Of a DNA stretch of 44,205 nt, positions 9,119-43,003 are shown piece after piece. Origin of the DNA: an uncultured Bacilli bacterium (lineage in GTDB: Bacteria > Bacillota_I > Bacilli_A > RF39 > UBA660); assembly GCA_944358805.1 (NCBI GenBank), contig CALVSD010000001.1:1-44205 (forward strand). Direction: 5' to 3'. Positions within the stretch are counted from its first letter, which is position 1, and every line of letters begins with the position of its first letter. The translations under genes and the position numbers were made by a program. The notes beneath the pieces were generated by a model, which was not told the DNA's origin, made no database searches, and was given only the letters and a program-made list of their open reading frames with translations.

Positions 9119-11080
9119 ATGAAATTTTTTAAAAAAATAATAAAATTAGGAATAATATTAATAGTACTATTTCTTGTATTTAATGTCGGTATGTACATTT
9201 ATTGTTTGATAACACCAAAAATGGATATTAACAAATCACAATCTTATTATTTATATGATAATAGTGGACAAGAAATTATGTCTAATGGAAATGAATGGAT
9301 TAGTTTAAATAATATTAGTCAATATTTAATTGATGCCACTTTAAGTACAGAAGATAAATATTTTTATAAACATTTGGGATTTGATTATCTACGTATTGCT
9401 AAGGCTATTGTTACAAATATTACTACTAAAAGTATGTCCGAAGGAGCCTCTACTATTACGCAACAATATGCAAGAAACTTATTTTTAAACTTTGACAAAA
9501 CTTGGTCTAGAAAAATTGATGAAGCAGTTTTAGCTTTTGAATTAGAAGCACATTATACAAAGGACGAAATATTAGAAGGATATTTGAATACTATTAATTA
9601 CGGAAATGTTTTTGGAATAGAAAATGCTTCAAAATATTATTTTAATAAAAGTGCTAGTGATCTAAATTTAGCAGAAGCTTCTATGTTGGCAGGTATACCT
9701 CAATCTCCTAGTAATTTATCCCCTATAAATAACCCTGAAGCCGCTAAAAAAAGACAAAAAACGGTTTTGTTATTAATGAAAAACAATGGAGTTATTACGG
9801 AAGAAGAAATGAATGAAGCCTATAATACTGAATTATCATATTATGGAAAAACTTCAAATAATAACCTAGAATATATAAATTATTTTAGAGATGCAGTAAT
9901 AGAAGAATTATATAATATCAAGAGTATTCCTAATTCTTTAATTGAAACAGGCGGATTAAAAATATATACAACTCTTGATTTAAAAGCACAAGAAAAATTA
10001 GAAACTGCAGTAAAAGAGCAAATGAATGGCGATAACCAATTACAAGTAGCTGGAATGATGATGGATCCAAACGACGGTGGTGTTATGGCTTTAGTTGGAG
10101 GTATAAATTATAGCAAAAGTCAATTTAATAGAGCAACCAATGCTACAAGACAAGTCGGTTCTACAATGAAACCATTTTTATACTATTCTGCGTTAGAAAG
10201 TGGTTTTACAGCAGCCTCTTCATTTACTAGCGAAAAAACAACATTTACTTTTTCTAATGACCAAACTTATTCACCTAAAAATTATAATGATAAATATGCA
10301 GAAGGTCCAATATCAATGGGTGCTGCTATATCTTATTCTGACAATATTTTTGCAGTCAAAACAAATCTTTTTTTAGGAGAAGAAATGCTTGTTAATATGG
10401 CTAACAGAGTAGGAATTACAAGTAAACTTACTCCAATACCTTCTCTAGCTTTAGGAACAGAAGAAGTTAGTTTAAAAGAAATGGTTGCTGGTTATGCTTC
10501 TTTTGCAAACATGGGATATAAAGTAGAATCACATTTTATTGAGAAAGTAGAAGATAGTAATGGAAATATATTATACGAATTTAAAAATACAAAAGAAAAT
10601 ATCCTAAATCCAAGTACAACTTATATTTTAAATGAAATGCTAACATATACTTATGATAAAGCTTTTATTGATTATAATTATCCTACATTAATTAGTTTAT
10701 TACCACAAATAACACATAAATATGCAATTAAATCAGGCACTACAAATACAGACGTGTGGATTATTGGCTATAATGAAAAAGCAGTCCTAGGAATTTGGAA
10801 CGGCTATGATGACAACAGAGAATTATCTAACGAAGATAGTGGAGACCATAAAAATATATGGATAAATACTATGGAATCTTATTTTAAAGATGTAGAAACT
10901 AATTGGTATGAAAAGCCAGAAAACGTTGTAGGAGTATTAGTTAATCCTATAACAGGACAGTTAGCAACAGATGAAGATAAGAAAAATAAAACTTTTTATT
11001 TCATAAAAGGAACAGAGCCCTATTCTAATGATAATACACAAAATCTTGAGACAGCCTTTAAAGAAAAAAATATGCAATAA
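9119..11080 (+). CDS. Class A penicillin-binding protein (glycosyltransferase GT51 plus transpeptidase)
   Basis: N-terminal TM anchor. GT51 motifs EDKYFYKHLGFD, GASTITQQ and RKIDEA. Transpeptidase motifs STMKP (SxxK), YSDN (SxN) and KSGTT (KTG). Confidence 0.92.
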   Translation: MKFFKKIIKLGIILIVLFLVFNVGMYIYCLITPKMDINKSQSYYLYDNSGQEIMSNGNEWISLNNISQYLIDATLSTEDKYFYKHLGFDYLRIAKAIVTNITTKSMSEGASTITQQYARNLFLNFDKTWSRKIDEAVLAFELEAHYTKDEILEGYLNTINYGNVFGIENASKYYFNKSASDLNLAEASMLAGIPQSPSNLSPINNPEAAKKRQKTVLLLMKNNGVITEEEMNEAYNTELSYYGKTSNNNLEYINYFRDAVIEELYNIKSIPNSLIETGGLKIYTTLDLKAQEKLETAVKEQMNGDNQLQVAGMMMDPNDGGVMALVGGINYSKSQFNRATNATRQVGSTMKPFLYYSALESGFTAASSFTSEKTTFTFSNDQTYSPKNYNDKYAEGPISMGAAISYSDNIFAVKTNLFLGEEMLVNMANRVGITSKLTPIPSLALGTEEVSLKEMVAGYASFANMGYKVESHFIEKVEDSNGNILYEFKNTKENILNPSTTYILNEMLTYTYDKAFIDYNYPTLISLLPQITHKYAIKSGTTNTDVWIIGYNEKAVLGIWNGYDDNRELSNEDSGDHKNIWINTMESYFKDVETNWYEKPENVVGVLVNPITGQLATDEDKKNKTFYFIKGTEPYSNDNTQNLETAFKEKNMQ

Positions 11081-11100: not shown

Positions 11101-11140
11101 AATCCTGTTTCTATGTCCAAGAAACAGGATTTCCATTAGA
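11101..11140 (-). terminator. Intrinsic terminator of the noc-like gene; the hairpin also faces the convergent PBP gene
   Basis: A 12-bp stem, AATCCTGTTTCT (11101-11112) pairing with AGAAACAGGATT (11120-11131). On the minus strand it is followed by TTTTTATAAG. The upstream arm encodes the last codons of the noc-like gene. Confidence 0.7.
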
Positions 11141-12559
11141 AATGGAATTCAAATTATTAACATCATCTTTCTTAATTTTTATTATTATTTGATATTCGTC
11201 AGCTAAATCTAATTCTTGCGTTTCTATTTTATTTCCAGCTTGTTTCATATTTGAAATCAATTCTCTTGTTTGATTAACTATTTTATTTAAATTAGATTTT
11301 GGTAATGAAGCTGGTGTAGATTCAGAATAAGGTTTAATATCATTATTTTGTTCTAGTGGATTACTTATATTGTTTCCAAAATTCATATTTACTGATTCGT
11401 CTTCTAATGAAGGGAAAAATTTATTTTCAAAATTGAATGCATTTTCTAATTTAGATGGAACTGTATTAGATTCTATAACGTTATTTAAAGGCGATTGTGT
11501 TTCTGGTTTTAATATGCTATTAAAATCTTCGCCATTGCTAGGTTGTTGCAAATTTGTAGAATTTGTATTTCTAGCTGCCTCTCTAATTGCTTCCATATCT
11601 ATTACCTGAGTTTTTTCTAGATTATCCTCTACTTTCGGTTCTAATTCATTAAATACATTAGAATTTGTATCAACTAAGTTTAATTCATTTAAAGCGTTTT
11701 GAACATTTGGATTGGCATTAGGTGTAGAAAAATTTGGAGTTGATTGAACTGTCATATTAGGATTACTTATATCTGCTATATTAACTACATCCGTATTTGG
11801 TTCTACAACATTATTGAATAATGAATTACTGTTACCAACATTGTTCTCAAACATATTTCTAGTTGCTATGGTATTCATATCATTATTCAAAAGATTTTCT
11901 GAAGGAATGGTAGAGCTAATACTAGTTTGACTACTATTAAACGGTTGTTGACCATTCATCATATTCTTTATTAATTCATCCGTATCTCTCACTGTTAATC
12001 TCTCCTCTATTATTTTGTTCAAAACTTCCCTTTGTTTCGCTGGATTATCTTTTAATTGCAATAAACTTCGTGCGTGTCTTTCAGAAATAGAATTATGTAA
12101 AAGAGCATCCTGTGCTTCAGGAACTAAATTTAATAACCTTAACTTATTGGCAATTGTTGACTGATTTTTTCCCATTTTGGCAGCTAATTGATCTTGGGTT
12201 AAATTACCTAAATCTAATAATTTTTTATATGATTTTGCTTCTTCAATTGGTGTTAAGTCCTTACGTTGAATATTTTCAATAATTGCTAATTCAGCGCTTG
12301 TTTGATCATCTAAATTAACAAGTATTGCTGGAACTTCTGTTAATCCTGCTAAAGTAGAAGCCTTATATCTTCTTTCACCTGCAATAATTTCATATTTGTC
12401 TCCTATTGGTCTTAATATTAATGGTTGTAATACTCCATACATCTTTATTGAACTTGCTAATTCATTTAATTCTTCTTCATTAAAAGCTAATCTTGGTTGA
12501 AATCTGTTTGGAATAATACTACTTAATTTTACTTTTACAACTTCTTTACCTGCTTCCAT
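11111..12559 (-). CDS. noc: ParB/Noc-family CTPase with a Noc-type DNA-recognition helix and a roughly 230-aa low-complexity insertion
   Basis: ParB N-domain (IIPNRFQPR, GVLQPLILRP, IIAGERRYKAS, which is the GERR CTP-binding box). The HTH, GKNQSTIANKLRLLNL...ISERHARSLL, matches B. subtilis Noc (GKGQSTIANKLRLLKL...ITERHARAL) and not Spo0J (GKSRPHIANHLRLLTL...SMGHGRTL). The C-terminus, NKIVNQTRELISNMKQAGNKIETQELDLADEYQIIIKIKK, parallels the Noc C-terminus. An Asn/Ser/Pro-rich stretch lies between the two. Confidence 0.8.
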   Translation of the reverse strand: MEAGKEVVKVKLSSIIPNRFQPRLAFNEEELNELASSIKMYGVLQPLILRPIGDKYEIIAGERRYKASTLAGLTEVPAILVNLDDQTSAELAIIENIQRKDLTPIEEAKSYKKLLDLGNLTQDQLAAKMGKNQSTIANKLRLLNLVPEAQDALLHNSISERHARSLLQLKDNPAKQREVLNKIIEERLTVRDTDELIKNMMNGQQPFNSSQTSISSTIPSENLLNNDMNTIATRNMFENNVGNSNSLFNNVVEPNTDVVNIADISNPNMTVQSTPNFSTPNANPNVQNALNELNLVDTNSNVFNELEPKVEDNLEKTQVIDMEAIREAARNTNSTNLQQPSNGEDFNSILKPETQSPLNNVIESNTVPSKLENAFNFENKFFPSLEDESVNMNFGNNISNPLEQNNDIKPYSESTPASLPKSNLNKIVNQTRELISNMKQAGNKIETQELDLADEYQIIIKIKKDDVNNLNSISNGNPVSWT

Positions 12560-12661: not shown

Positions 12662-13627
12662 TTACGAATTTGGTCTTTTCTTAGTTCTTTGTCTTGTATT
12701 TTTTTTAGTTTGTGGTTGACCTGTTTGTTCTCTTTGATTGCAATCCCTAGTATTTCCATATAATTGGTTCCTTAACAAATATTGCGTTACATCATTTGGA
12801 TTACTCATACCATAAAATAAATTAGCATCTCCATTAGATAAAAATATTGTCTTTACCAATTCAAATTTAGTTGCATCATCAGTCTTCATATTTGCAATCT
12901 CATCTAAAATATTTCTTATTTCTCCTGCAAGAACTTTATTATCTGCAGTTCCTAATTTTTCTCTAACTTCAGCATCCTTTTCTGCTACTGCTAGTCTTGC
13001 TTCAGCCTCACAAATAGCAACCTTCTTTTTAGCGTCAGCTTCTGCTAATAATCTTGCATTTTCCATTTCTTGCATTGCTTTCTTTTCATAATCATCTTTC
13101 ATTGATTGTGGTAATTCAACTTGTTTAAAAGAAATATCATTTACTTTTAAACCTGTTTCATTTGTAAATAATTCATAATCTCTATTCAAATCAAAAGCAG
13201 ATAAATTATGAGTGCCGGTAATCATTTCTTCAGCTGTTTTTGAAGCCACATATTGTCTTAGTTTATCTCGTGTCTTAATTTTTAGTTCCTGCATAGGGTC
13301 GTTGTTATTAAACTCGTATTTTATTGGATCTACAACAGAAAACACAAGTGCTAAATCAACTGTAACTTCAATTCCATCAGAAGTCCTGTATTTTTCTTTA
13401 GGATAATCAATTGTATTTCTCGCTAAAGAAACCATTTTACTTTTTACCCAAAATCCCACTACAACTAATCCACTCGTCTTTACAAACGGCTTACCAGTAA
13501 ATATGTTTTGACATATTAAAGCCATGTTTGGCGGTACAGCCTTAAATACTCTTACTTTATAGCTACTAAAATCATCTACTTCTTCGCCTGCTCTTTCGTC
13601 AGTATTTCTTTTAAATAAATTTATCAT
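12662..13627 (-). CDS. SPFH/Band-7 domain protein (stomatin/flotillin superfamily) without an obvious TM segment; basic C-terminal tail
   Basis: TSDGIEVTVDLALVFSVVDPIKY, GLKVNDISFKQVELPQSM, and an Ala/Glu-rich coiled segment (LLAEADAKKKVAICEAEARLAVAEKDAEV) are typical of SPFH domains. GGGGGA RBS. Confidence 0.8.
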   Translation of the reverse strand: MINLFKRNTDERAGEEVDDFSSYKVRVFKAVPPNMALICQNIFTGKPFVKTSGLVVVGFWVKSKMVSLARNTIDYPKEKYRTSDGIEVTVDLALVFSVVDPIKYEFNNNDPMQELKIKTRDKLRQYVASKTAEEMITGTHNLSAFDLNRDYELFTNETGLKVNDISFKQVELPQSMKDDYEKKAMQEMENARLLAEADAKKKVAICEAEARLAVAEKDAEVREKLGTADNKVLAGEIRNILDEIANMKTDDATKFELVKTIFLSNGDANLFYGMSNPNDVTQYLLRNQLYGNTRDCNQREQTGQPQTKKNTRQRTKKRPNS

Positions 13628-19805: not shown

Positions 19806-21560
19806 ATGTTTAAAGAAATAGTAGAAATTAGTAAAAATTACGCGCTTGTTAAAATAAATGGTAATATTAATGAAGATTTACTTAACTATAATGTTGTATT
19901 TGAAGATGATAAAAAAATACTGGGAGAAATAGAAGAAATAAGTGGGGATACTGTTAAAATTACTTTTTTAGGTGAATTTATTAGTGGTAAATTTTATTCT
20001 GGTATTATTAGAAAACCTAGTTTAAATGCAACAGTTAGAATTATTAATCAAGAGGAATTAGGAGAAATAGTAGGGGACAATAACCCAAAAAGCATGACAT
20101 TAGGAATATCTCCTTTGTATAATTATCCAATTAAAATAGATATTGACGATATGTTTTCTAATCATAGTGCTATTTTTGGTAATACTGGTTCCGGTAAAAC
20201 GTATGGAGTAGCAAGACTTGTACAAAATCTATTTGTTATGAAAGATAAAATTCCTTTTAATAGTAATATTTTTATTTTTAATAACACTAGTGAATACGAT
20301 AATGCTTTTAAATCAATAAATAACATTAATGTTAATTATAATTATAAAATTTTTACTACTAATACAGAACAAAAAGAAGCTCCATTAATTAAATTGCCTT
20401 TATGGTTACTTAACGTAGATGATTATGCAAATTTATTAAATGTAACTGTTTATTCTCAAATTGCAATTATAGAGAAGATGTTAAGCTTAGTTTCTGTATT
20501 TGCTAGAAATGACGCTGAAAGCAAGAGATATAAGAATCACTTAATAGCTAAAGCTATCATTTCTGTAATGTATTCTAATCAAATGTCTGCCAGAATTAGA
20601 GATCAAATATTTTCTATTTTAACAGATTGTTATACTGATGAATTAAATTTAGATGTAGACGTTCCTGGTATAGGATATAAAAGACAGTTTAGAAAGTGTT
20701 TTGATTTAGATAGTAAAGGCGAATTTGTAGAAAGAATTCTAATAACAGAATATATTCAACAATTTATAGATAATAATACAAAATGGAATGAAGATTATGT
20801 ACCGGTTTATTTCACTCTAGATGATTTAGAAGTAGCTTTAAATTTTGCTTTAATTTCAGAAGGACTATTATTAAATGAAAAATCTTATGCAGAAGCAACT
20901 GCTTTAAAAGTAAGATTACATACACTAAATAACAGTTCTAATAGTATATTCTTTAAATATGATAGATTTATAAATTTAAATGAATTTATATCTAATATTA
21001 TATTAGTTGATAACAATAAAAGAGCTCAAATTATTAACTTCGTTTTAGAAGATATTGATGATAGATTTGCTAAAGCTTTAGTAAAAATATACTCTAGATT
21101 ATTATTTAAATTCTCTAAAGGATTACAAGATAGGGGATCGATACCAATTCATATTATGCTTGAAGAAGCCCACAGATATGTTCAAAAAGATTCAGATAAT
21201 GAATTACTTGGTTACAATATTTTTGAAAGAATAGCTAAAGAAGGACGTAAATTTGGTTTAGTTATAGATTTGATTACACAAAGACCAACAGAATTATCTG
21301 AAACTGTTATTTCTCAATGTAGTAATTTCTTAATTTTTAAAATTAACCATCCAACCGATTTAGAATATATTAGAAAAATGGTTCCTAATATTAGTGCTGA
21401 TGTCATAGAAAAACAAAAATCTTTACAATCTGGAACCTGTGTAGCATTTGGAAGAATGATGAAAATTCCAATGATTGTAAAAATGGAAATTCCAAATCCA
21501 GAACCTCATAGTTCTAATGCATCAATCTATAACAAATGGATGATTGAATGGAAAAGATAA
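19806..21560 (+). CDS. HerA-like (DUF87) ATPase with an N-terminal HAS-barrel-like domain; stand-alone
   Basis: Walker A is FGNTGSGKTYGV. Walker B region is IHIMLEEAHRY. KEGRKFGLVIDLITQRPTELSETVISQCSNFLIFKINHPTD is typical of HerA/DUF87 hexameric translocases. The N-terminal roughly 100 aa form a beta-rich barrel-like segment (VKINGN...LGEIEEISGDTVKITFLGE). Extended -10 TGATATAAT at 19771-19779 and an AGAGGGA RBS. Confidence 0.75.
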   Translation: MFKEIVEISKNYALVKINGNINEDLLNYNVVFEDDKKILGEIEEISGDTVKITFLGEFISGKFYSGIIRKPSLNATVRIINQEELGEIVGDNNPKSMTLGISPLYNYPIKIDIDDMFSNHSAIFGNTGSGKTYGVARLVQNLFVMKDKIPFNSNIFIFNNTSEYDNAFKSINNINVNYNYKIFTTNTEQKEAPLIKLPLWLLNVDDYANLLNVTVYSQIAIIEKMLSLVSVFARNDAESKRYKNHLIAKAIISVMYSNQMSARIRDQIFSILTDCYTDELNLDVDVPGIGYKRQFRKCFDLDSKGEFVERILITEYIQQFIDNNTKWNEDYVPVYFTLDDLEVALNFALISEGLLLNEKSYAEATALKVRLHTLNNSSNSIFFKYDRFINLNEFISNIILVDNNKRAQIINFVLEDIDDRFAKALVKIYSRLLFKFSKGLQDRGSIPIHIMLEEAHRYVQKDSDNELLGYNIFERIAKEGRKFGLVIDLITQRPTELSETVISQCSNFLIFKINHPTDLEYIRKMVPNISADVIEKQKSLQSGTCVAFGRMMKIPMIVKMEIPNPEPHSSNASIYNKWMIEWKR

Positions 21561-21623: not shown

Positions 21624-21825
21624 TGTGGATAACTTATAAATTTATTACTTATATTATAAAGGATTAACAAGTTTTCCACAGTTTCCACATATATCCACAG
21701 CCTGTGGAAAACTATGTTTTATAATTGTGGAAAAGAAAAAAACGTAAAAACTGTGGAAAATTAATTGATTCTTTTATAAACTTTAATTTATACTTGTGGA
21801 TAACCTGTGGAAAACATGTGGGAAA
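21624..21825. promoter_or_regulatory. oriC part 1: DnaA-box cluster upstream of dnaA
   Basis: Perfect boxes TGTGGATAA (complement of TTATCCACA) at 21624-21632 and 21795-21803. Boxes with 1-2 mismatches at 21672-21680, 21681-21689, 21691-21699, 21703-21711, 21726-21734, 21752-21760, 21806-21814 and 21817-21825. Confidence 0.9.
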
Positions 21826-21901: not shown

Positions 21902-23266
21902 ATGGATATTGACACATTGTGGCAAAAATTTCTTGAACGAATAAAAGAACAAGTAGTAGAATTTTCTTATGATACATGGTTTAAAGAAAGCAAATTATAT
22001 GATTTATCCAATAATACTGCAACTGTTATAGTTCCTATGAAATTACATATTAAACATTTAGATGAAAATTATAAAGATTTAATTACAAAAGTCTTTAATG
22101 AACTTACAGGAACTAATTTTAAATTTGTTTTTAAATTAAAAGAAGATGTAGGTAAGAAACCAAAAGCGGATACCGTTATTGAAAACATTCAAGAAGGAGT
22201 TCCTTATCAAAGTGTGGAAGATGCAAATCTTAATCCAAATAACACTTTTGAAAATTTTATTGTAGGAAATAGTAATAAGTTTGCGTTTGTAGCAGCACAA
22301 GCAGTAGCTGAAAAACCAGGTAAAGCTTATAATCCTTTATTTTTATATAGTAAAAGCGGATTGGGAAAAACTCATTTAATGCAAGCCATTGGAAATTATA
22401 TTTTGAAAAATTCTAATATGAAAGTATTATATATTTCGTCTGATAAATTTGTTAATGATTTTATTAATGCCGTTAGAACTAATGATAAAAATAACTTTAA
22501 TAAAATTGATAATTTTAAAAATAGGTATAGGAATATTGATGTTTTAATAATTGATGACATTCAATTTTTAGGTACTGCAACTAAAGGACAAGAAGAATTT
22601 TTTCATACTTTTAATGAGTTATATAATTCAAATAAACAAATTATTATAGCTTCTGACAGATCTGTTGATGATTTAAAAATGTTAGAAAATAGATTATTAA
22701 CAAGATTTAACTGGGGACTAACTGCAAATATTACTCCACCTGATTTTGAACTTAGAATGAATATAATAAGAAAAAAGATATCTCATCAAGAGGCGGCTCA
22801 AGATGTTCCTGATAATGTTATAGAATATATAGCAAATAGTTTTGATTCAGATGTAAGACAATTAGAAGGAGCCATCACTAGAGTATTTGCTTACGCTCTT
22901 ATGATGAATAAAGGTAAAGTAACATTAGATATTGCAGTAGAAGCTTTAAAAGATCAACTTATAGACAGAAGTGTTTATAAAAATGACGTTCATAGAATTC
23001 AAAGAGTAGTATGCGATTACTTTAAAGTAAATATTGATGATTTAAAAGGAAAGAAAAGAAATCAGACAATAAACTATCCAAGACAAGTAGCAATATATTT
23101 ATGTAGAACTATGACTACAGAATCTTTTCCTAAAATAGGTTCATATTTTGGTGGTAGAGATCACTCCACAATTATGAGTGCTTATCAAAAAGTAGAAGAT
23201 GAACTTAAAGAAAACAATCAACTAAGAGAGATAATTGCGGAGTTAAAAAAAGATTTATCCACTTAA
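21902..23266 (+). CDS. dnaA: Chromosomal replication initiator protein DnaA
   Basis: NPLFLYSKSGLGKTHLMQAIGN (Walker A), LIIDDIQFL, the sensor/box VII region, and C-terminal HTH SFPKIGSYFGGRDHSTIMSA. GGAGGG RBS. Confidence 0.98.
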   Translation: MDIDTLWQKFLERIKEQVVEFSYDTWFKESKLYDLSNNTATVIVPMKLHIKHLDENYKDLITKVFNELTGTNFKFVFKLKEDVGKKPKADTVIENIQEGVPYQSVEDANLNPNNTFENFIVGNSNKFAFVAAQAVAEKPGKAYNPLFLYSKSGLGKTHLMQAIGNYILKNSNMKVLYISSDKFVNDFINAVRTNDKNNFNKIDNFKNRYRNIDVLIIDDIQFLGTATKGQEEFFHTFNELYNSNKQIIIASDRSVDDLKMLENRLLTRFNWGLTANITPPDFELRMNIIRKKISHQEAAQDVPDNVIEYIANSFDSDVRQLEGAITRVFAYALMMNKGKVTLDIAVEALKDQLIDRSVYKNDVHRIQRVVCDYFKVNIDDLKGKKRNQTINYPRQVAIYLCRTMTTESFPKIGSYFGGRDHSTIMSAYQKVEDELKENNQLREIIAELKKDLST

Positions 23267-23400
23267 TTTGTGGACAAATGTGGATAATTAAAAAAGTTTT
23301 CCACAAGCATGTGGTCAAAAATTTCTATTAATATAAGGATTTTTTGTAGTTTTCCACAGTTTCCACTGTATAATAATAAATAATATATATATAATAAGAA
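23255..23400. promoter_or_regulatory. oriC part 2: DnaA boxes plus an AT-rich TAA/ATA-repeat unwinding region between dnaA and dnaN
   Basis: Boxes at 23255-23263 (TTATCCACT), 23269-23277, 23279-23287 (perfect TGTGGATAA), 23297-23305, 23310-23318, 23350-23358 and 23359-23367. These are followed directly by GTATAATAATAAATAATATATATATAATAA (23368-23400), which resembles DnaA-trio/DUE organisation. Confidence 0.8.
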
Positions 23401-24559: not shown

Positions 24560-24657
24560 ATTAAAATTCAATTTTCTTGATATACGACATTTTTAGACAA
24601 ACTTCGACAAAGTAATGTGCTTTAATAAAAATCGTATTTTTGAAGGGGGGATTATTT

Positions 24658-25110
24658 ATGAGATATATAATAAACAAAAATACGTATATTATAAAAACAG
24701 AAGATAAGAGTACGACAAAAATTATTGAGAAAGGGAAAACTTTAAATAGAAAGGAAGATCCAGCGACTATTATAAGTGATTCCTGTAGTTATTATAGGTA
24801 TTCATTAAATTTTAGAGTGGAAGAAAGTAAGAAGCAATTCAAAAGCAATTACAAGAATCCTATTATAGTGGATAATGAAAGTAAAATAATTTTTTTTCCA
24901 ATTAAGTCTATTACAGCAAAAGATAATACTTGGATTTCTTATAATAATTTAGTAACCTTTTTAAGAAAGAAACATAATACTATACTAGTTTTCTTTGATG
25001 GAAGTACTATTATTGTACCCGTTAATTATAGTATTATATCTTCGCAAATATCTAAGTGTTTTATTTTAGAAAAAAAAATAGAAAAAAGTACTAATTTAAG
25101 TAAAATTTAG
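24658..25110 (+). CDS. ComK-family protein (competence transcription factor-like), short form
   Basis: KIIEKGKTL......IISDSCSYYRYSL......NYKNPIIVDNESKIIFFPIKSITAKDNTWISYNNL.....ILVFFDGSTIIVPVNYSIISSQ parallels B. subtilis ComK (KIIEKDCVF...IVDRSCRFFGSS...SHKPPIMVDPSNQIFLFPTLSSTRPQCGWISHVHV...EVTFSNGKTMELPISYNSFENQ, recalled). GAAGGGGGG RBS upstream of the ATG at 24658. Confidence 0.7.
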   Translation: MRYIINKNTYIIKTEDKSTTKIIEKGKTLNRKEDPATIISDSCSYYRYSLNFRVEESKKQFKSNYKNPIIVDNESKIIFFPIKSITAKDNTWISYNNLVTFLRKKHNTILVFFDGSTIIVPVNYSIISSQISKCFILEKKIEKSTNLSKI

Positions 25111-25212: not shown

Positions 25213-26310
25213 ATGGTAATAAAAAAAATTAAATTAAAAAATTATCGTAATTATGATGATTTAGAAATAGCATTAAATGAGAAATTAAATATTATTATAG
25301 GAAAAAATGCTCAAGGTAAAACAAATATATTAGAATCTATATATGTTTTATCTTTAACAAAATCTTATTTAAATATAAATGATAAAAATTTAATAAAGCT
25401 GGGGAATAATTATTCAATATTAGAAGCAGAAACAATACTAAATAATATCCCTAAAAAATTTAAAATTTTAATAAACGATAATGGAAAAAAAGTTATCATA
25501 AACGGAAGAGAAATAAAAAAATTAAGTGAATATATATCAAATTTGAAAGTTGTTATTTTTAGTCCTGAAAATATAAGAATGATTAGAGATGGTCCAAGTG
25601 TAAGAAGAAAATTTTTGAATATGGAACTTAGTCAAATATCTCCATTATATGTTAGACTATTGATGGATTACAATAATATAATTAGACAAAAAAATGAATA
25701 TTTAAAATTAGATAAAATAAATATAGAATATTTAAAAATTTTAAATAAAAAGATAGCTGAATTATCTGTTAATATATATATATATAGGAAAGAATTTATA
25801 GATAAACTTTGCAATTTTATAGATAATATCTATTATAAAATAATGGGAATTCAAGGACTTAGAATAAAATATATATCTAATATTGATTATTTTGAAGATA
25901 AATCAATGATGATTGCTAAATATACAGAAAAGTTAGAAAAATATTTAGAGAAAGAAATATTGTATAAAGTATCGTTAATAGGCCCACAAAGGGACGATTT
26001 TATTTTTGTACTAAATGATAAAAATATATCTTTATATGGTTCGCAAGGACAATTACGGAGTGTAATATTATCGTTAAAATTGTCAGAAATAGAATTAATA
26101 AAAAATGAATGTAATGAGGATCCGATATTGTTATTAGATGATATATTTAGTGAATTAGATATTGAAAAAAAGAATAATTTAATAAATTATATAAACGATA
26201 ATACTCAAACAATAATAACAACTACTGATATAAATATGATTGATGAAAAATTAGTTAAGAAAGCAAGTATTTTTGAAATAAATGATGGAAAATTATTTCC
26301 CGGGAAATAA
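25213..26310 (+). CDS. recF: DNA replication and repair protein RecF
   Basis: IKKIKLKNYRNYDDLEI...NIIIGKNAQGKTNILESIY (Walker A), GPQRDDF, GSQGQLRS (signature) and ILLLDDIFSELD (Walker B). The start at 25213 is inferred from the usual RecF N-terminus; the RBS is weak. Confidence 0.93.
   Translation: MVIKKIKLKNYRNYDDLEIALNEKLNIIIGKNAQGKTNILESIYVLSLTKSYLNINDKNLIKLGNNYSILEAETILNNIPKKFKILINDNGKKVIINGREIKKLSEYISNLKVVIFSPENIRMIRDGPSVRRKFLNMELSQISPLYVRLLMDYNNIIRQKNEYLKLDKINIEYLKILNKKIAELSVNIYIYRKEFIDKLCNFIDNIYYKIMGIQGLRIKYISNIDYFEDKSMMIAKYTEKLEKYLEKEILYKVSLIGPQRDDFIFVLNDKNISLYGSQGQLRSVILSLKLSEIELIKNECNEDPILLLDDIFSELDIEKKNNLINYINDNTQTIITTTDINMIDEKLVKKASIFEINDGKLFPGK
26294..26309. other. Noc-binding-site-like palindrome NBS-1 (TATTTCCCGGGAAATA), overlapping the last codons of recF
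   Basis: A perfect 16-mer inside a 22-bp perfect palindrome, AATTATTTCCCGGGAAATAATT (26291-26312), followed by TTTT. Confidence 0.7.
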
Positions 26311-26344: not shown

Positions 26345-26360
26345 TATTTCCCGGGAAATA
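26345..26360. other. Noc-binding-site-like palindrome NBS-2 in the gyrB leader
   Basis: A perfect 16-mer TATTTCCCGGGAAATA inside a 22-bp palindrome, AAATATTTCCCGGGAAATATTT (26342-26363), 22 nt upstream of the gyrB ATG. Confidence 0.7.
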
Positions 26361-28313: not shown

Positions 28314-30746
28314 ATGAACGAAAATGACAAAAAAGTAAGTATTAACATTATAGATGAAATGAAAACATCATTTTTGGATTATTCTATGAGTGTTATTGTA
28401 GCAAGAGCTATACCAGATGTTAGAGATGGTTTAAAACCTGTTCATAGACGTATTTTGTATACTTTATACGAGGAAGGGATGACACCAGATAAAAAGCACC
28501 AAAAAAGTGCTAATGCAGTAGGAGCAGTAATGGGACATTATCATCCACATGGTGATGCAGCTATTTATGATACAATGGTAAGAATGGCTCAAGATTTTAC
28601 TTATAGACATGCTTTAGTTGATGGACATGGTAATTTTGGTAGTATTGATGGAGATTCAGCTGCTGCATCTCGTTATACTGAGGCTAAACTTGCAAAAATA
28701 TCAATGGAAATGTTGAGAGATTTAAATAAAGAAACTGTTGATTTTATGGAAAACTATGATGGTCAAAGAAAAGAACCCGTAGTTTTACCTAGTAGGTTTC
28801 CAAATATTTTAGTTAATGGTAATATGGGAATAGCAGTAGGTATGGCTACTAATATACCTCCTCATAATTTAGGGGAAGTGATAGATGGTTGTATTGCTTA
28901 TATAGATAATCCTGACATTTCAGTACTTGATTTAATGGAAAAAATTAAAGGACCAGATTTTCCAACCGGAGGAATTATTTTAGGTAATAGTGGTATAAAA
29001 AGAGCTTACGAAACAGGAAGAGGTACAATAACTGTAAGAGCGAGAGTTAATATAGAAGAACATAATGGTAAAAATAAAATTATTATTACAGAATTGCCTT
29101 ATCAGGTTAATAAAAAATCTTTAATAACAAGAATAGCAGAATTAGTTAGGGATAAAGTTTTAGATGGAATATCTAATTTAAGTGATGAATCAGCATTAGA
29201 AGGAATTAAAATAGTAATAGACGTAAAAAAAGAAGCAAATGCTAATGTAGTTTTAAACAATTTATATAAGCATACACAATTACAAATTTCCTATGGTATT
29301 AACTTTTTAATGTTGGTTGATGGTAGTCCTAGAATATTAGATATGAAGACAATTTTGGAAAAATACTTAGATCACCAAAAGCAAGTTATTTATCGTAGAT
29401 GTCAATTTGATTTAAAAAAATATCAAGCAAGATTACATATATTAGAAGGATTACAAATTGCTTTAGATCATATAGATGAAGTAATAAAGATAATTAAAGC
29501 AGCAAAAACAGATGATGAAGCAAGTAAAGAATTAATAGCTAAATTTAATCTTTCTGAAGCTCAAACTCAAGCAATCTTAGAAATGAAGTTAAGAAGGCTT
29601 ACAGGTTTAGAAAAAGAAAAAATAGAAAATGAAATAGCAGAATTAGAAAGATTAATAAAAGAATTAGAAGAAATTTTAAATAGTGAAGAAAAAATTCTTC
29701 AAGTAATAAAAAATGAATTAAACGAAATTAAATTAAAATATGCAAATGAAAGAAAAACATTTATAGATATGAGTGCTATAGATTATATAGATGATGAAGC
29801 ATTAATACCTGAAGAAAATATAGTTATAACTTTAACAAATAAGGGTTATATAAAGAGAATGCCGGCTGATACTTATAAAGCACAACATCGAGGTGGAGTT
29901 GGTATTAAAGGTATGTCAATGAATGAAGAAGATTTCGTTGAAAATATTATAAACTTAACTACACATGATTATATCTTATTCTTTACTAATAATGGAAAAG
30001 TCTATAGAACTAAAGGATATGAAATTCCTGAATATAGTAGACAATCTAAAGGTTTGCCAATAATAAATTTATTATCTTTAGAGAAAAACGAAAAAATTAC
30101 ATCTTTATTAAAAATAGAACGAGAAGAAACTCACAAATATTTAGTTTTTGCTACTAAACAAGGTTTCATAAAGCGTACTGACATAAAAGAATTTGATAGT
30201 ATTCGTGCAAATGGTAAAAAGTTTATTACATTGAGAGAAGACGATGAGTTAATTTCTGTTAAAAAGACAACTGGAGATAACGAAATTTTGATGGCTTCTT
30301 CAAATGGAAGAATGGTACGATTTACAGAAGATTCAATTAGAGTAATGGGAAGATCTGCTTCTGGAGTAAGAGGCATTAATTTAGAAGAAGGAACACTCGT
30401 AGGAATGGAAATAGCGGACAATAATCAAGAAGTATTAGTAGTAACAGAGAAAGGTTATGGAAAAAAGACACCTCTAGCAGAATACAGATTAACAAACAGA
30501 GGAGGTAAAGGTGTAAAAACTTTAAGCGTTACAGAGAAAAATGGCTCTATTATATCTTTCAAAACAGTAACAAATGATGAAGATATCATGATAATTACTA
30601 ATACAGGAATGATTATAAGATTAAATGTAGAAAATATATCTTCAATGAGCAGAGTTACTCAAGGTGTTCGATTGATTAATTTAAAAGAAGGACAATTAGT
30701 TAGTTCAATAGCTATTATAAAAAGAGAATTAGAAGAAGAAATTTAG
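28314..30746 (+). CDS. gyrA: DNA gyrase subunit A
   Basis: RAIPDVRDGLKPVHRRILY, HPHGDAAIYDTMVRMAQ (QRDR), AASRYTEAKL (active-site Tyr), and C-terminal beta-pinwheel repeats. Confidence 0.98.
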   Translation: MNENDKKVSINIIDEMKTSFLDYSMSVIVARAIPDVRDGLKPVHRRILYTLYEEGMTPDKKHQKSANAVGAVMGHYHPHGDAAIYDTMVRMAQDFTYRHALVDGHGNFGSIDGDSAAASRYTEAKLAKISMEMLRDLNKETVDFMENYDGQRKEPVVLPSRFPNILVNGNMGIAVGMATNIPPHNLGEVIDGCIAYIDNPDISVLDLMEKIKGPDFPTGGIILGNSGIKRAYETGRGTITVRARVNIEEHNGKNKIIITELPYQVNKKSLITRIAELVRDKVLDGISNLSDESALEGIKIVIDVKKEANANVVLNNLYKHTQLQISYGINFLMLVDGSPRILDMKTILEKYLDHQKQVIYRRCQFDLKKYQARLHILEGLQIALDHIDEVIKIIKAAKTDDEASKELIAKFNLSEAQTQAILEMKLRRLTGLEKEKIENEIAELERLIKELEEILNSEEKILQVIKNELNEIKLKYANERKTFIDMSAIDYIDDEALIPEENIVITLTNKGYIKRMPADTYKAQHRGGVGIKGMSMNEEDFVENIINLTTHDYILFFTNNGKVYRTKGYEIPEYSRQSKGLPIINLLSLEKNEKITSLLKIEREETHKYLVFATKQGFIKRTDIKEFDSIRANGKKFITLREDDELISVKKTTGDNEILMASSNGRMVRFTEDSIRVMGRSASGVRGINLEEGTLVGMEIADNNQEVLVVTEKGYGKKTPLAEYRLTNRGGKGVKTLSVTEKNGSIISFKTVTNDEDIMIITNTGMIIRLNVENISSMSRVTQGVRLINLKEGQLVSSIAIIKRELEEEI

Positions 30747-30767
30747 TTTTACTAAACTTCTTTTTTT
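30738..30767 (+). terminator. gyrA intrinsic terminator
   Basis: GAAATTTAGT-TTT-ACTAAACTTC hairpin (one A/C mismatch) overlapping the TAG stop, followed by a T7 run. Confidence 0.65.
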
Positions 30768-30786
30768 ATTAACTTAAGTTACAAAG

Positions 30787-30802
30787 TATTTCCCGGGAAA
30801 TA
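30787..30802. other. Noc-binding-site-like palindrome NBS-3
   Basis: A perfect TATTTCCCGGGAAATA. Confidence 0.7.
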
Positions 30803-30815
30803 TTTCCTGGAAATA
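30801..30815. other. Degenerate NBS-like palindrome NBS-4 (15-mer TATTTCCTGGAAATA), abutting NBS-3
   Basis: Same half-sites (TATTTCC/GGAAATA) with one central base missing. It shares TA with NBS-3. Confidence 0.45.
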
Positions 30816-30851
30816 TTTTATCTTTTACGCAAAGTAAACAGATGTTCGTGT

Positions 30852-30867
30852 TGTTTCACGTGAAACG
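30852..30867. other. parS: parS site 1 (TGTTTCACGTGAAACG)
   Basis: 15 of 16 match to the ParB/Spo0J consensus TGTTNCACGTGAAACA. Confidence 0.8.
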
Positions 30868-30970
30868 TAGTATAATAAAAAAAATGAAGATTTTAATGTG
30901 TTTTAAAATATTTATATTTATATGTGCAAGGGAACAATTAATAAATTATTATAAAAAATCTTGCACATTA

Positions 30971-30986
30971 TGTTTCACGTGAAACG
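30971..30986. other. parS: parS site 2 (TGTTTCACGTGAAACG)
   Basis: 15 of 16 match to the parS consensus. Confidence 0.8.
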
Positions 30987-31488
30987 TAATGTGGCATCTT
31001 AACATTTTGCAAGAAGAAAATTATAAAAATGTTTTATTAATAGCACAAACAAGGCGGAGCATCTACATTATTTTTATAATTTTGTCATTGCAATTTAAAC
31101 TAAACATCTTTTTATTAATATTAAAAATAAAAATACCATAAAATAAAATAAGTTGTGAATTAAATTTGCGAACTAAAATTTGCTTCATTTCTTTGTGTAG
31201 ATAAAAATATAATGCAACAAATATATAACAATTAAATATATAATATGGTAAAAAATAAATTAATTAAGAAAAAAAACAGTACTTAAAAACGTGTTAAAAC
31301 GATTGGGATATAGAATTAAAATAAAAAAATGAAGCTTGACGAATTAATTGATGATTAATTTGATGGAAATTTATTCGTTTTATGAACGATTTTATAATTA
31401 AAAAAATAATTTAAACGAAAAATAATATGAATTTGATAGGAGTCTGATTAGAAACAACAAATAAATGACAATATAATTTTTACAAACA

Positions 31489-31504
31489 TGTTTCACGTGA
31501 AACA
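31489..31504. other. parS: parS site 3 (TGTTTCACGTGAAACA, perfect)
   Basis: 16 of 16 match. It forms the core of a 30-bp perfect palindrome at 31482-31511. Confidence 0.85.
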
Positions 31505-31652
31505 TGTTTGTGTCTTGTTTTTTTTAAATAAAAATATATAATAATAGTTAAAAATAAATTTGTTGTACAGCTCAAATAATAAAGAATAGATAAAGCACAA
31601 CAGAAATATTAAATTTTATTTTATTGCTTTTTATAATAATTGTAATGAAAAA

Positions 31653-31668
31653 GGTTCCACGTGAAACA
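31653..31668. other. parS: parS site 4 (GGTTCCACGTGAAACA)
   Basis: 15 of 16 match. It is identical in 15 positions to the site inside B. subtilis spo0J (TGTTCCACGTGAAACA). It lies 15 nt upstream of the SRP RNA -35 box. Confidence 0.8.
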
Positions 31669-31682
31669 TATTCTAAAAACAT

Positions 31683-31711
31683 TTGTATAAATTACAAATA
31701 AATAGTATAAT
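31683..31711 (+). promoter_or_regulatory. Sigma-A promoter of the SRP RNA gene
   Basis: TTGTAT (31683-31688), a 17-nt spacer, then TATAAT (31706-31711). Confidence 0.7.
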
Positions 31712-31716
31712 GATAT

Positions 31717-31797
31717 TGCGCAACAATAATATTGGAAACGAGTCAGGATTGGAAAATAGCAGCTCTAACAAGAAAAATTGTGTGCGCTTATTTTTTT
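31717..31797 (+). ncRNA. ffs: Small (4.5S-type, about 80 nt) signal recognition particle RNA
   Basis: GAGUCAGGAUUGGAAAAUAGCAGCUC reproduces the universal domain IV of E. coli 4.5S RNA (GGUCAGGUCCGGAAGGAAGCAGCC). The GGAA tetraloop, the CAGG/AGCA symmetric loop and the closing U-G pair are all present. The UCC/GGA stem is replaced by the compensatory AUU/AAU. The terminal helix GCGCAACAA (31718-31726) pairs with UUGUGUGCGC (31778-31787) and is followed by a U-run. Confidence 0.85.
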
Positions 31798-31824
31798 GTA
31801 AAAATAAAGAGGTAGATCGATATA

Positions 31825-32241
31825 ATGCATAAATATATGGAAATAGCCATAAAAGAGGCAAGAAAAGCGTATAAAAAAGGTGAAGTTCCTGTTGGAGCTG
31901 TTATTGTTTGCAATGATAAAATATTGGCGAAAGCTCATAATAATAGAAAAAAAAGTAATTTAACAATAGGACATGCTGAAATGTTAGCGATAAATATAGC
32001 TAATCGAAAGAAAAAAACGTGGATTTTAGATGATTGTGAATTATATGTGACATTAGAACCATGTATGATGTGCGCAGGAGCAATTGTTGAAAGTAGAATA
32101 AAAAAAATATATTGTAACCTAACTAAAACAAACGATTGTTCGATAAAATGGTTGAAAGAGAACAACGTTCAAGTAATTAAGGATGAAACCAGTTCAGAAA
32201 ACACCTTGTTATTACAAAGTTTTTTTCAAAAAAAAAGATAG
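31825..32241 (+). CDS. tadA: tRNA-specific adenosine deaminase
   Basis: Zinc-binding motifs of CDA-fold deaminases: HAEMLAI and PCMMCAGA. EVPVGAVIV is also present. Confidence 0.93.
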   Translation: MHKYMEIAIKEARKAYKKGEVPVGAVIVCNDKILAKAHNNRKKSNLTIGHAEMLAINIANRKKKTWILDDCELYVTLEPCMMCAGAIVESRIKKIYCNLTKTNDCSIKWLKENNVQVIKDETSSENTLLLQSFFQKKR

Positions 32242-38978: not shown

Positions 38979-38994
38979 TATTTCCCAGGAAATA
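38979..38994. other. Noc-binding-site-like palindrome NBS-5 (TATTTCCCAGGAAATA)
   Basis: 15 of 16 match. It sits inside AATTATTTCCCAGGAAATAATT (38976-38997), which differs by one base from the 22-mer at the end of recF. It starts 4 nt after the pth stop codon. Confidence 0.6.
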
Positions 38995-42413: not shown

Positions 42414-42472
42414 TTCTTTTTTGTATAAATTTATATATATTTAACACAATAATATTAGAAATGGAGGAATAT

Positions 42473-43003
42473 ATGAAAACAACAGGAATAATAAGGAGAA
42501 TTGATGAATTGGGTAGAATAGTAATTCCTAAGGAAATTAGAAAAAATATGCGAATTGATAATGGTGAGAGCCTTGAAATATTTATTGATGAAGATAATAT
42601 AATTTTAAAAAAATATTCTCCGATTGAAAGTTTAAATTCTGTAGCAGAAAAATACGTTGATATATTTAATCAAGTTATTAAACATAATGTTATTGTAACG
42701 GATAGAAATAAGGTAATAGCAATAGCAGGGAATTTAAAGAAGCAATATTTAAATAAAGAAATAAGTGAATTTACTAGCCATTCAATTGATAGACGAGATA
42801 GTTTTGTTGAAAGACAAAAAAATTCTTTTGAAATAGTAAAGGGTATAAATGAGGTAGGCTATTATTCATTTAGTTCTATCGTTAATAACGGTGATGCAAT
42901 TGGTTCAGTAATAATAGTTTCAACTGATTATCCAATATTAGAGGGAGATGAAAAAATGGCTGTAATACTATCAAAAATATTATCAAAGTACTTTATAAAC
43001 TGA
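42473..43003 (+). CDS. spoVT: Stage V sporulation protein T (AbrB-type N-domain plus GAF-like domain)
   Basis: MKTTGIIRRIDELGRIVIPKEIRKNMRIDNGESLEIF is nearly identical in pattern to the B. subtilis SpoVT N-terminus. About 176 aa. mfd-spoVT synteny. GGAGGA RBS upstream of the ATG at 42473. Confidence 0.9.
   Translation: MKTTGIIRRIDELGRIVIPKEIRKNMRIDNGESLEIFIDEDNIILKKYSPIESLNSVAEKYVDIFNQVIKHNVIVTDRNKVIAIAGNLKKQYLNKEISEFTSHSIDRRDSFVERQKNSFEIVKGINEVGYYSFSSIVNNGDAIGSVIIVSTDYPILEGDEKMAVILSKILSKYFIN

Follow-up and report, generated by a model that had tools for sequence, protein, structure and literature searches.

The spacer between gyrA and tadA in the region around the replication origin of an uncultured Bacilli bacterium carries four parS sites, and it probably constitutes an origin-proximal centromere in the form of a short array of loading sites for ParB (Spo0J). 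The sequence analysed, hereafter the window, is a stretch of 44,205 nucleotides of contig CALVSD010000001.1 (GCA_944358805.1), which has a G+C content of about 25% and contains the origin of replication (oriC); an ENA metagenome scaffold carries the identical sequence. The array is conserved at the same syntenic position across a clade of uncultured relatives, and it is accompanied by binding sites for the ParB paralogue Noc (Noc-binding sites, NBS). The features of the spacer and its borders, including a gene for the RNA of the signal recognition particle (SRP), are as follows.

28314-30746, plus strand: gyrA, the left border of the array
30787-30802: NBS, TATTTCCCGGGAAATA, perfect; 41 bp past the gyrA stop codon and 64 bp before parS1
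30852-30867: parS1, TGTTTCACGTGAAACG; one mismatch, at position 16
30971-30986: parS2, TGTTTCACGTGAAACG; one mismatch; within a 30-bp near-palindrome at 30964-30993
31489-31504: parS3, TGTTTCACGTGAAACA; perfect, and in the full 18-bp form of the clade, ATGTTTCACGTGAAACAT
31653-31668: parS4, GGTTCCACGTGAAACA; one mismatch, at position 1
31707-31803, plus strand: small SRP RNA gene (ffs); Rfam score 53 bits, with the gathering score set at 40
31825-32241, plus strand: tadA, the right border of the array, with dnaX, ybaB and recR next

The reference for parS is the 16-bp palindrome TGTTNCACGTGAAACA. A preliminary description of this DNA had reported four 16-mers with zero or one mismatch and had judged them to be beyond chance. 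Positions and letters are all as it gave them, and no further match with up to two mismatches is found in the 44,205 bases. In 100 dinucleotide-preserving shuffles the mean number of parS matches was 0.03, against the four seen, and none of the 100 reached the observed count. The hexamer CACGTG, which had been said to occur nowhere else in the window, is indeed present four times (0.59 expected), each time inside a parS site. The spacings from parS to parS are 119, 518 and 164 bp. Nothing is repeated beyond the site cores, so that the array in the window is not a head-to-tail tandem repeat, and the 518-bp stretch between parS2 and parS3 contains no decayed parS or NBS at up to four mismatches and no extra half-sites. 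parS1 is probably the weakest of the sites, because the flanking A at position -1, conserved in the clade, is missing.

The array is close to the origin, as the following two features indicate.

21902-23266: dnaA
21624-23358: bipartite oriC, with DnaA-box clusters at 21624-21814 and 23255-23358, one on each side of dnaA

Because the DnaA-box clusters flank dnaA and the cumulative GC skew has its minimum and turn at about 19-20 kb of the window, the array is placed 7.5-9.2 kb from oriC, to its right. The distance of about 9 kb given earlier is in agreement with this range.

The gap between gyrA and tadA had also been described as non-coding and without any open reading frame of 60 amino acids or more. 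It contains no real protein gene, only a spurious reading frame of 62 amino acids (31673-31861, minus strand) that overlaps its edge; what had been missed are the SRP RNA gene and the perfect NBS. The SRP RNA is the sole RNA detected by Rfam and ARAGORN in the window, with no tRNA and no rRNA. Since its gene occupies 31707-31803, the spacer proper is 30747-31706, which is 960 bp long with 20.6% GC.

To place the array in a wider context, the 80 genomes with the best GyrA matches were taken from GTDB with one genome per species. They split cleanly into cultured Bacillaceae and 47 loci from low-GC metagenome-assembled genomes (MAGs) of uncultured bacteria. The GyrA proteins of the latter are 58-80% identical to that of the window, and their labels include Bacilli, Mollicutes, Tenericutes, Erysipelotrichaceae and 'Firmicutes bacterium CAG:582'. 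A comparison of the gyrA-tadA interval in relatives had been proposed in the preliminary description, and it shows that the gap holds between 1 and 18 parS in 43 of the 47 loci, each from a different species, and at least two in 41. Two other loci (L045 and L071) have the array just downstream of the gap, and in L005 and L014 the contigs end too near gyrA for a judgement. The closest species (L002) has 18 parS within 1.85 kb. About nine-tenths of the approximately 210 parS of the clade lie inside the gyrA-tadA gap, which amounts to a few percent of the bases scanned. Among the cultured Bacillaceae of the set, parS is absent behind gyrA. For most Bacillus the contig ends no more than about 300 bp past gyrA; where the sequence goes on, as in a complete Lysinibacillus chromosome, an rRNA operon comes next, so the earlier remark that the gap takes the position of rrnO in Bacillus subtilis was right in kind. 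As a separate observation, L005 and L018 are contigs of one public MAG (HGM10817) with gyrA genes 80% and 67% identical to that of the window; this bin probably mixes two related species.

The logo of the clade sites is an 18-bp palindrome, A-TGTTYCACGTGRAACA-T, with essentially zero information beyond it. Flanks that are nearly without information indicate a protein-binding site and not a repeat element. In a k-mer survey of the gaps, segments of the SRP RNA were the only further conserved sequence, so that parS cores, NBS and the SRP RNA gene are all that is conserved there, while the other spacer sequence drifts. Because 43 species keep parS in the same gap while the flanks are unconserved, parS appears to be under strong purifying selection in the clade. 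A recognisable tandem duplication is present in about 8 of 29 arrays, with units of 60, 75, 76, 106, 108, 126 and 393 bp (in L045, 106 bp repeated 4.6 times). The other arrays, among them those of the window and of L002, have spacers that show no relation to one another, and the cores alone persist. These patterns suggest that arrays grow by tandem duplication and that the spacers then decay.

The tandem units of 60-393 bp in some relatives might also be taken to mean that the sites are a dispersed or mobile palindromic repeat, such as a repetitive extragenic palindromic (REP-like) or miniature inverted-repeat transposable (MITE-like) element, or a decaying tandem repeat without function. This explanation has hardly any probability. 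There are no copies outside the gap in the window and almost none in the relatives, and no conserved flank, terminal repeat or target duplication accompanies the sites. Moreover, the spacers have diverged past all recognition around cores that are still perfect, as in L002, where 18 sites occur without a detectable tandem repeat, a pattern showing that only the core is under selection. A CRISPR-like or mobile-repeat reading was also considered and is ruled out by a conserved unit of 18 bp, one locus per genome, and unconserved flanks.

Perfect palindromes that extend past the site also enclose the parS of the clade, at a rate well above chance. Such cases occur in 24 of 45 loci, and the window's parS2 and parS3 are among them. 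Beyond the conserved position at ±1, the palindrome continues with a probability of 0.6-0.8 per bp, compared with about 0.30 expected from base composition, and perfect palindromes of 24-36 bp surround parS in L002, L010, L020, L026, L031, L040, L052 and others. The outer arms are unconserved in sequence and mostly without T-runs. Candidate causes of the excess are selection for cruciforms or hairpins, or an origin of new sites from palindromes. In the window, parS3 is at the centre of a perfect 30-bp palindrome (31482-31511), whose 14-bp stem is followed by a T-run and which therefore looks like a terminator. A hairpin with a T-rich tail, possibly the gyrA terminator, is formed by the NBS that follows gyrA and the half-repeat ATTTCCTGGAAAT beside it.

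It may be asked, then, whether these palindromes act chiefly as RNA or DNA structures, that is, as terminators or insulators between gyrA, ffs and tadA-dnaX, with the match to parS being incidental or secondary. Besides the excess palindrome extension, a terminator scan lends this view some support, for it found two terminator-like sites, parS3 and the NBS hairpin (-17 and -15.2 kcal/mol), where 0.1 were expected. However, the combination of hairpin and T-run is confined to these two and is not seen at parS1, parS2 or parS4; parS1 and parS4 have no significant hairpin at all, and that of parS2 (-16.8 kcal/mol, z -5.4) is without the run. In the clade, a T- or A-run stands beside the palindrome at only about 10% of 219 sites. 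Terminators, furthermore, do not hold an identical core of 16-18 bp in more than 40 species with drifting flanks, and up to 18 sites in 1.85 kb far exceed the needs of termination. A purely structural role is thus very improbable.

The SRP RNA gene brings in a different alternative, in which the sites are operators through which ParB or a related factor mainly regulates this gene, tadA-dnaX, or both, and not segregation. By sequence reading, a TATAAT hexamer (31706-31711) lies about 38 bp downstream of the end of parS4, ahead of the SRP RNA gene, whose terminal helix starts near 31719. At least 27 relatives have the gene in this gap, and six of these have it in the middle of the array with sites on both sides. 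There is also a precedent, because ParB of Pseudomonas aeruginosa, bound at intergenic parS3 and parS4, represses the adjacent genes (PMC7022226). On the other hand, loss of Spo0J in B. subtilis leaves expression beside parS unchanged (PMC7022226). An operator tied to a particular promoter does not fit the clade, because the number of sites varies freely (1-18) and neither their spacing nor their distances to ffs and tadA are conserved. Regulation as the main function is considered unlikely.

The second class of sites, NBS, was identified with the 14/16-bp palindrome (T)ATTTCCCGGGAAAT(A), the 16-mer form of which is the sequence of the site after gyrA. The window contains the following further NBS.

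26294-26309 and 26345-26360: two perfect NBS, at the 3' end of recF and in the recF-gyrB spacer
38979-38994: NBS with one mismatch, TATTTCCCAGGAAATA, in the pth-mfd spacer; kept in other assemblies of the same species

The window therefore has three perfect NBS and one with a single mismatch, compared with 0.37 expected from shuffles at up to three mismatches. All four are located at gene 3' ends or between genes, with an extended A/T-flanked palindrome. In the clade loci 97 NBS were found (at most one mismatch in the 14-bp core), of which 79 are perfect 16-mers. Half of the 97 are no more than 150 bp from a parS, and the favoured offset from NBS to parS is 28-30 bp. L032 has 5.6 copies of a 126-bp unit that combines one parS with one NBS. 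Strict alternation of parS and NBS is seen in L032, L017, L034 and L039, and a similar alternation in L026 and L009. It is also of note that several relatives have tandem clusters of NBS only (2-3 sites, 45-48 bp apart) about 2 kb downstream of gyrA, which mirror the recF-gyrB pair of the window:

L012, 5326-5435: NBS-only cluster
L036, 8328 and 8373: NBS-only cluster
L037, 14619 and 14664: NBS-only cluster

The association of the two sites was examined independently of gene context by scanning metagenome contigs for the motif NBS-N{5,35}-parS alone, which yielded at least 120 stretches. Among the matches listed, 116 are flanked by homologues of gyrA, tadA/dnaX or both, with a G+C content of 0.19-0.38. 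Since these form the great bulk of the matches listed, the parS/NBS composite, which is very common in metagenomes of the gut and rumen, is essentially specific to the gyrA-tadA spacer in this lineage. Of the four other matches listed, three are contigs whose length of 1-2 kb leaves no neighbours visible. The remaining one (L182, 1553-2320) comes from a different organism with 49% G+C and has four parS and one NBS between rsmG and parA-parB. This spacer is the usual position of noc, and L182 is the only clear composite outside the gyrA-tadA gap among the matches listed.

A candidate reader of the NBS is encoded in the window itself, by its sole ParB-family gene.

11111-12559, minus strand: Noc-like ParB paralogue of 482 amino acids, with ParB_N and HTH_ParB domains and a GERRY motif for binding of cytidine triphosphate (CTP)

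The preference of ParB-family proteins for parS or NBS is set by four positions, and Q173 and R201 with one permissive lysine lead to recognition of NBS (Jalal et al. 2020, PMC7383237). In the scaffold of Caulobacter ParB, Q173 abolishes the contact to a guanine of parS (Jalal et al. 2020, PMC7383237). The specificity segment of the window's protein, GKNQSTIANKLRLLNL...ISERHAR, gives Q173, K179, N184 and R201, and the Q173/K179/R201 signature is present in all 12 aligned orthologues. The best match among solved structures is Noc of Geobacillus, with 207 bits compared with 155 bits for Spo0J of B. subtilis. The gene adjoins rsmG in relatives and is one gene away from it in the window; noc of B. 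subtilis is likewise beside rsmG. From these residues and matches the protein is predicted to read NBS, not parS. Since it is the window's only member of the family, the ParB that binds parS is not encoded in the 44 kb.

The protein is not a typical Noc, for it does not reach the cut-off of the NCBIfam Noc model TIGR04285 (315 bits), scoring 283 as encoded and 291 without its linker. The scores are 286-290 for the orthologues and 238 for the canonical ParB of L086 (see below). The linker is of low complexity, rich in N and S, and about 230 amino acids long, compared with about 100 in the orthologues; the C-terminal domain is conserved. The N-terminus begins 4-5 residues before the point at which residue 26 of Geobacillus Noc aligns. 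Because the protein starts so near to that residue, it lacks the N-terminal amphipathic membrane-targeting helix, and equally short N-termini are found in all 12 aligned orthologues. Known Noc depends on this helix to bind the membrane and to exert occlusion (PMC8429893). A gene for an SPFH/Band-7 membrane protein (12662-13627, minus strand) is inserted between the Noc-like gene and rsmG, in the orientation of both, and is not at this position in L086 and L088. It is pure speculation that this protein might give the helix-less Noc-like protein a link to the membrane.

A canonical partition system does occur in the clade. In one species (L086/L090), which belongs to another genus of the clade and whose Noc-like protein is 73% identical to that of the window, genes for ParA and a ParB of 292 amino acids are located divergently from the rpmH-rnpA operon. 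In the window's sub-clade the same slot, between rnpA/rpmH and dnaA and beside oriC, is occupied by an ATPase gene.

196-1074 of L086: canonical ParB, with the ParA-interaction motif LGKGLEELF, the CTP-binding motif GERRLRA, and residues R173, T179 and G201
19806-21560 of the window, plus strand: HerA/FtsK-like P-loop ATPase (DUF87) of 584 amino acids

For the ParB of L086, the best match among solved structures is Spo0J of B. subtilis (221 bits, compared with about 157 for Noc). A search for its homologues gave at least 120 matches, of which those listed are all variants from one genus with at least 85% identity and thus uninformative about a ParB in the window's own species. The HerA/FtsK-like ATPase is present at the same slot in seven relatives in GTDB and on one metagenome contig, with 64-79% identity. 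A tblastn search of the low-GC clade loci with the Noc-like N-terminus and the ParB and ParA of L086 found no ParB or ParA gene within about 10 kb of gyrA, and about 5.6 kb of sequence beyond the window contig contain no par genes. A parS-type ParB may nevertheless be expected in this genome, because L086 has one and parS is perfectly conserved in the sub-clade (L002, L003, L008, L013, L016).

Another way to account for these observations is that the genome has no separate ParB and that the 482-residue protein reads both parS and NBS. It is, after all, the only ParB-family gene product in the 44 kb, the sub-clade has no parAB beside rpmH or dnaA, and promiscuous variants of ParB and Noc are known in vitro (PMC7383237). 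All of those variants retained R173, however, and the protein of the window has Q173, together with K179 and R201. The Noc-type signature is, moreover, common to all the aligned orthologues, and in L086 the Noc-like protein is found alongside a separate canonical ParA and ParB. Such dual specificity is thus highly unlikely.

Under the interpretation of the spacer as an origin-proximal centromere, ParB dimers would nucleate at each parS, binding of CTP would close the ParB clamps around the DNA, and the clamps would slide outwards. Several close sites would raise the loading flux and could thus produce a dense partition complex over the neighbouring kilobases, including oriC 7.5-9 kb away. Together with ParA, should the genome encode it, this complex would place the origin in the cell and segregate it. 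It would probably recruit SMC-ScpAB as well, by analogy with B. subtilis, Streptococcus pneumoniae, Caulobacter and Corynebacterium (PMC7022226). At the neighbouring NBS, a Noc-like clamp would be loaded. Because the spacer also holds an NBS for the window's paralogue, the locus is better regarded as a composite ParB/Noc-like loading zone than as a pure parS platform. The preliminary description had proposed a dedicated centromere platform. The conservation fits a ParB loading platform, but 'dedicated' is too strong, because the SRP RNA gene and an NBS share the gap, and NBS alternate with parS in the relatives.

Several observations weigh against the centromere interpretation. The hairpins of parS3 and of the NBS after gyrA also resemble intrinsic terminators. 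The preliminary description had called for the genes of ParB, ParA and SMC to be located; the 44-kb window yielded the Noc-like ParB at 11111-12559, but no gene for a parS-type ParB, ParA, SMC or ScpAB. Since the rpmH-adjacent slot that holds parAB in L086 holds the HerA/FtsK-like ATPase in the window's sub-clade, the cognate ParB of this genome is inferred and not seen. Finally, the array of the window is sparser and weaker than those of the relatives, because an outer position is mismatched in three of its four sites, and one site is without the flanking base conserved in the clade.

A further step would be to regard the spacer, in this large clade of gut and rumen Bacilli, as a deliberately interleaved composite centromere, often with both kinds of site inside a single tandem unit. 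A canonical ParB and the helix-less Noc paralogue, as two CTP-gated clamps, would load there next to each other and form an origin complex of a mixed or layered type. In that event the Noc paralogue would have been re-purposed from genome-wide occlusion to a role at the origin or centromere, candidates for which are origin organisation, control of initiation, and capture of the origin during sporulation. The long palindromes would in this case be a sign that cruciforms or hairpins contribute structurally, or that sites are generated from palindromes. This extended proposal is put forward tentatively, its chances being somewhat short of even.

The gene order across the window is typical of Bacilli. 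The remaining genes, together with those already mentioned, are arranged as follows.

Minus strand, in order: argS, the ParB-family gene, the SPFH gene, rsmG, mnmG, mnmE, jag, yidC, rnpA
9119-11080, plus strand: PBP1A gene, between argS and the ParB-family gene
Plus strand, left of the gap: HerA/FtsK-like ATPase gene, dnaA, dnaN, ComK-like gene, recF, gyrB, gyrA
Plus strand, right of the gap: tadA, dnaX, ybaB, recR, holB, pth, mfd, spoVT

The gene between dnaN and recF (24640-25110, plus strand) belongs to the ComK family; its counterpart at this position in Bacillus is the small S4-like gene yaaA. The sporulation gene spoVT is at 42461-43003 of the window, and spoIIR is present in relatives (L086, 11092-11613; L088, 18784-19317). 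The sporulation genes and PBP1A suggest that the capacity for peptidoglycan synthesis, and possibly for sporulation, persists in this lineage of small genomes, which bears on any role of the array in anchoring the origin.

The main interest of the locus is in the composite architecture of parS and NBS and not in the four parS sites themselves. The pairing of the two sites, together with the helix-less Noc-like protein, suggests that two CTP switches of the ParB family can cooperate at one locus. With 1-18 sites in one syntenic spacer, and with tandem expansion followed by spacer decay, the clade also provides a natural series for the question of parS number. In practice, the array is a marker of the origin region for the fragmented MAGs of an uncultured gut lineage that is very common, and compact parS/NBS cassettes are the type of element used in orthogonal ParB/Noc DNA labelling (PMC11109969).

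Clusters of several parS near oriC, which form one nucleation zone for the partition complex, are shared with other bacteria, among them Caulobacter, Corynebacterium and Myxococcus. Such clusters span about 10-200 kb, with genes interspersed. In contrast, the sites described here are 50-500 bp apart in non-coding DNA, often in tandem units, and are interleaved with the sites of a second ParB-family protein. Origin-proximal parS clusters of 1 to about 23 sites per genome are well known (PMC7333895), as exemplified by parS1-4 of P. aeruginosa and by the 20-23 sites of Streptomyces coelicolor and Listeria innocua (PMC7333895, PMC7022226). The kind of arrangement is therefore known, and the core idea of the preliminary description is sound. 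A single parS is usually enough, and why the sites cluster is recognised as an unsolved question (PMC7333895, PMC7022226), as is what determines their number (PMC7333895). No description of parS arrays after gyrA, of their tandem-unit architecture or of interleaved parS and NBS was found in the literature consulted, which did not cover the survey of Livny et al. 2007. What differs here is the extreme packing in one non-coding spacer with fixed synteny across an uncultured lineage, the tandem-unit architecture in some species, which resembles a plasmid centromere, and the systematic interleaving with NBS, the predicted reader of which is a helix-less Noc paralogue.

With the parS-Spo0J system of B. 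subtilis and other Firmicutes, the array has in common the same 16-bp palindrome and the location near the origin, and the ParB of L086 resembles Spo0J in its GERRxRA CTP-binding motif and its parS-type residues. B. subtilis has about ten parS spread over hundreds of kilobases, mostly within genes. In the window and the 43 related species, in contrast, parS are crowded into a single short spacer between genes, the syntenic position of which is fixed; their number reaches 18 within 1.85 kb, and the recognition sequence is lengthened to 18 bp. The centromere sopC of the F plasmid consists of 12 units of 43 bp, each with a SopB site. Similar to it are the head-to-tail units of 60-126 bp with one palindrome each in L008, L013, L032, L034, L041 and L045. 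Unlike sopC, the sites are chromosomal parS, the four of the window are not in a tandem repeat, and the units may carry two different sites.

The likeness to the Noc-NBS system of B. subtilis and Staphylococcus aureus consists in the identical 16-bp NBS, the residues Q173/K179/R201 of the cognate protein, the best structural match to Geobacillus Noc, and the location of the gene, which adjoins rsmG in relatives. Known NBS are dispersed across the half or two-thirds of the chromosome nearest to the origin (PMC5540599). Those described here, in contrast, cluster in intergenic spacers around oriC, alternating with parS, and the protein of the window differs from known Noc in having no membrane helix and in scoring below the NCBIfam cut-off.

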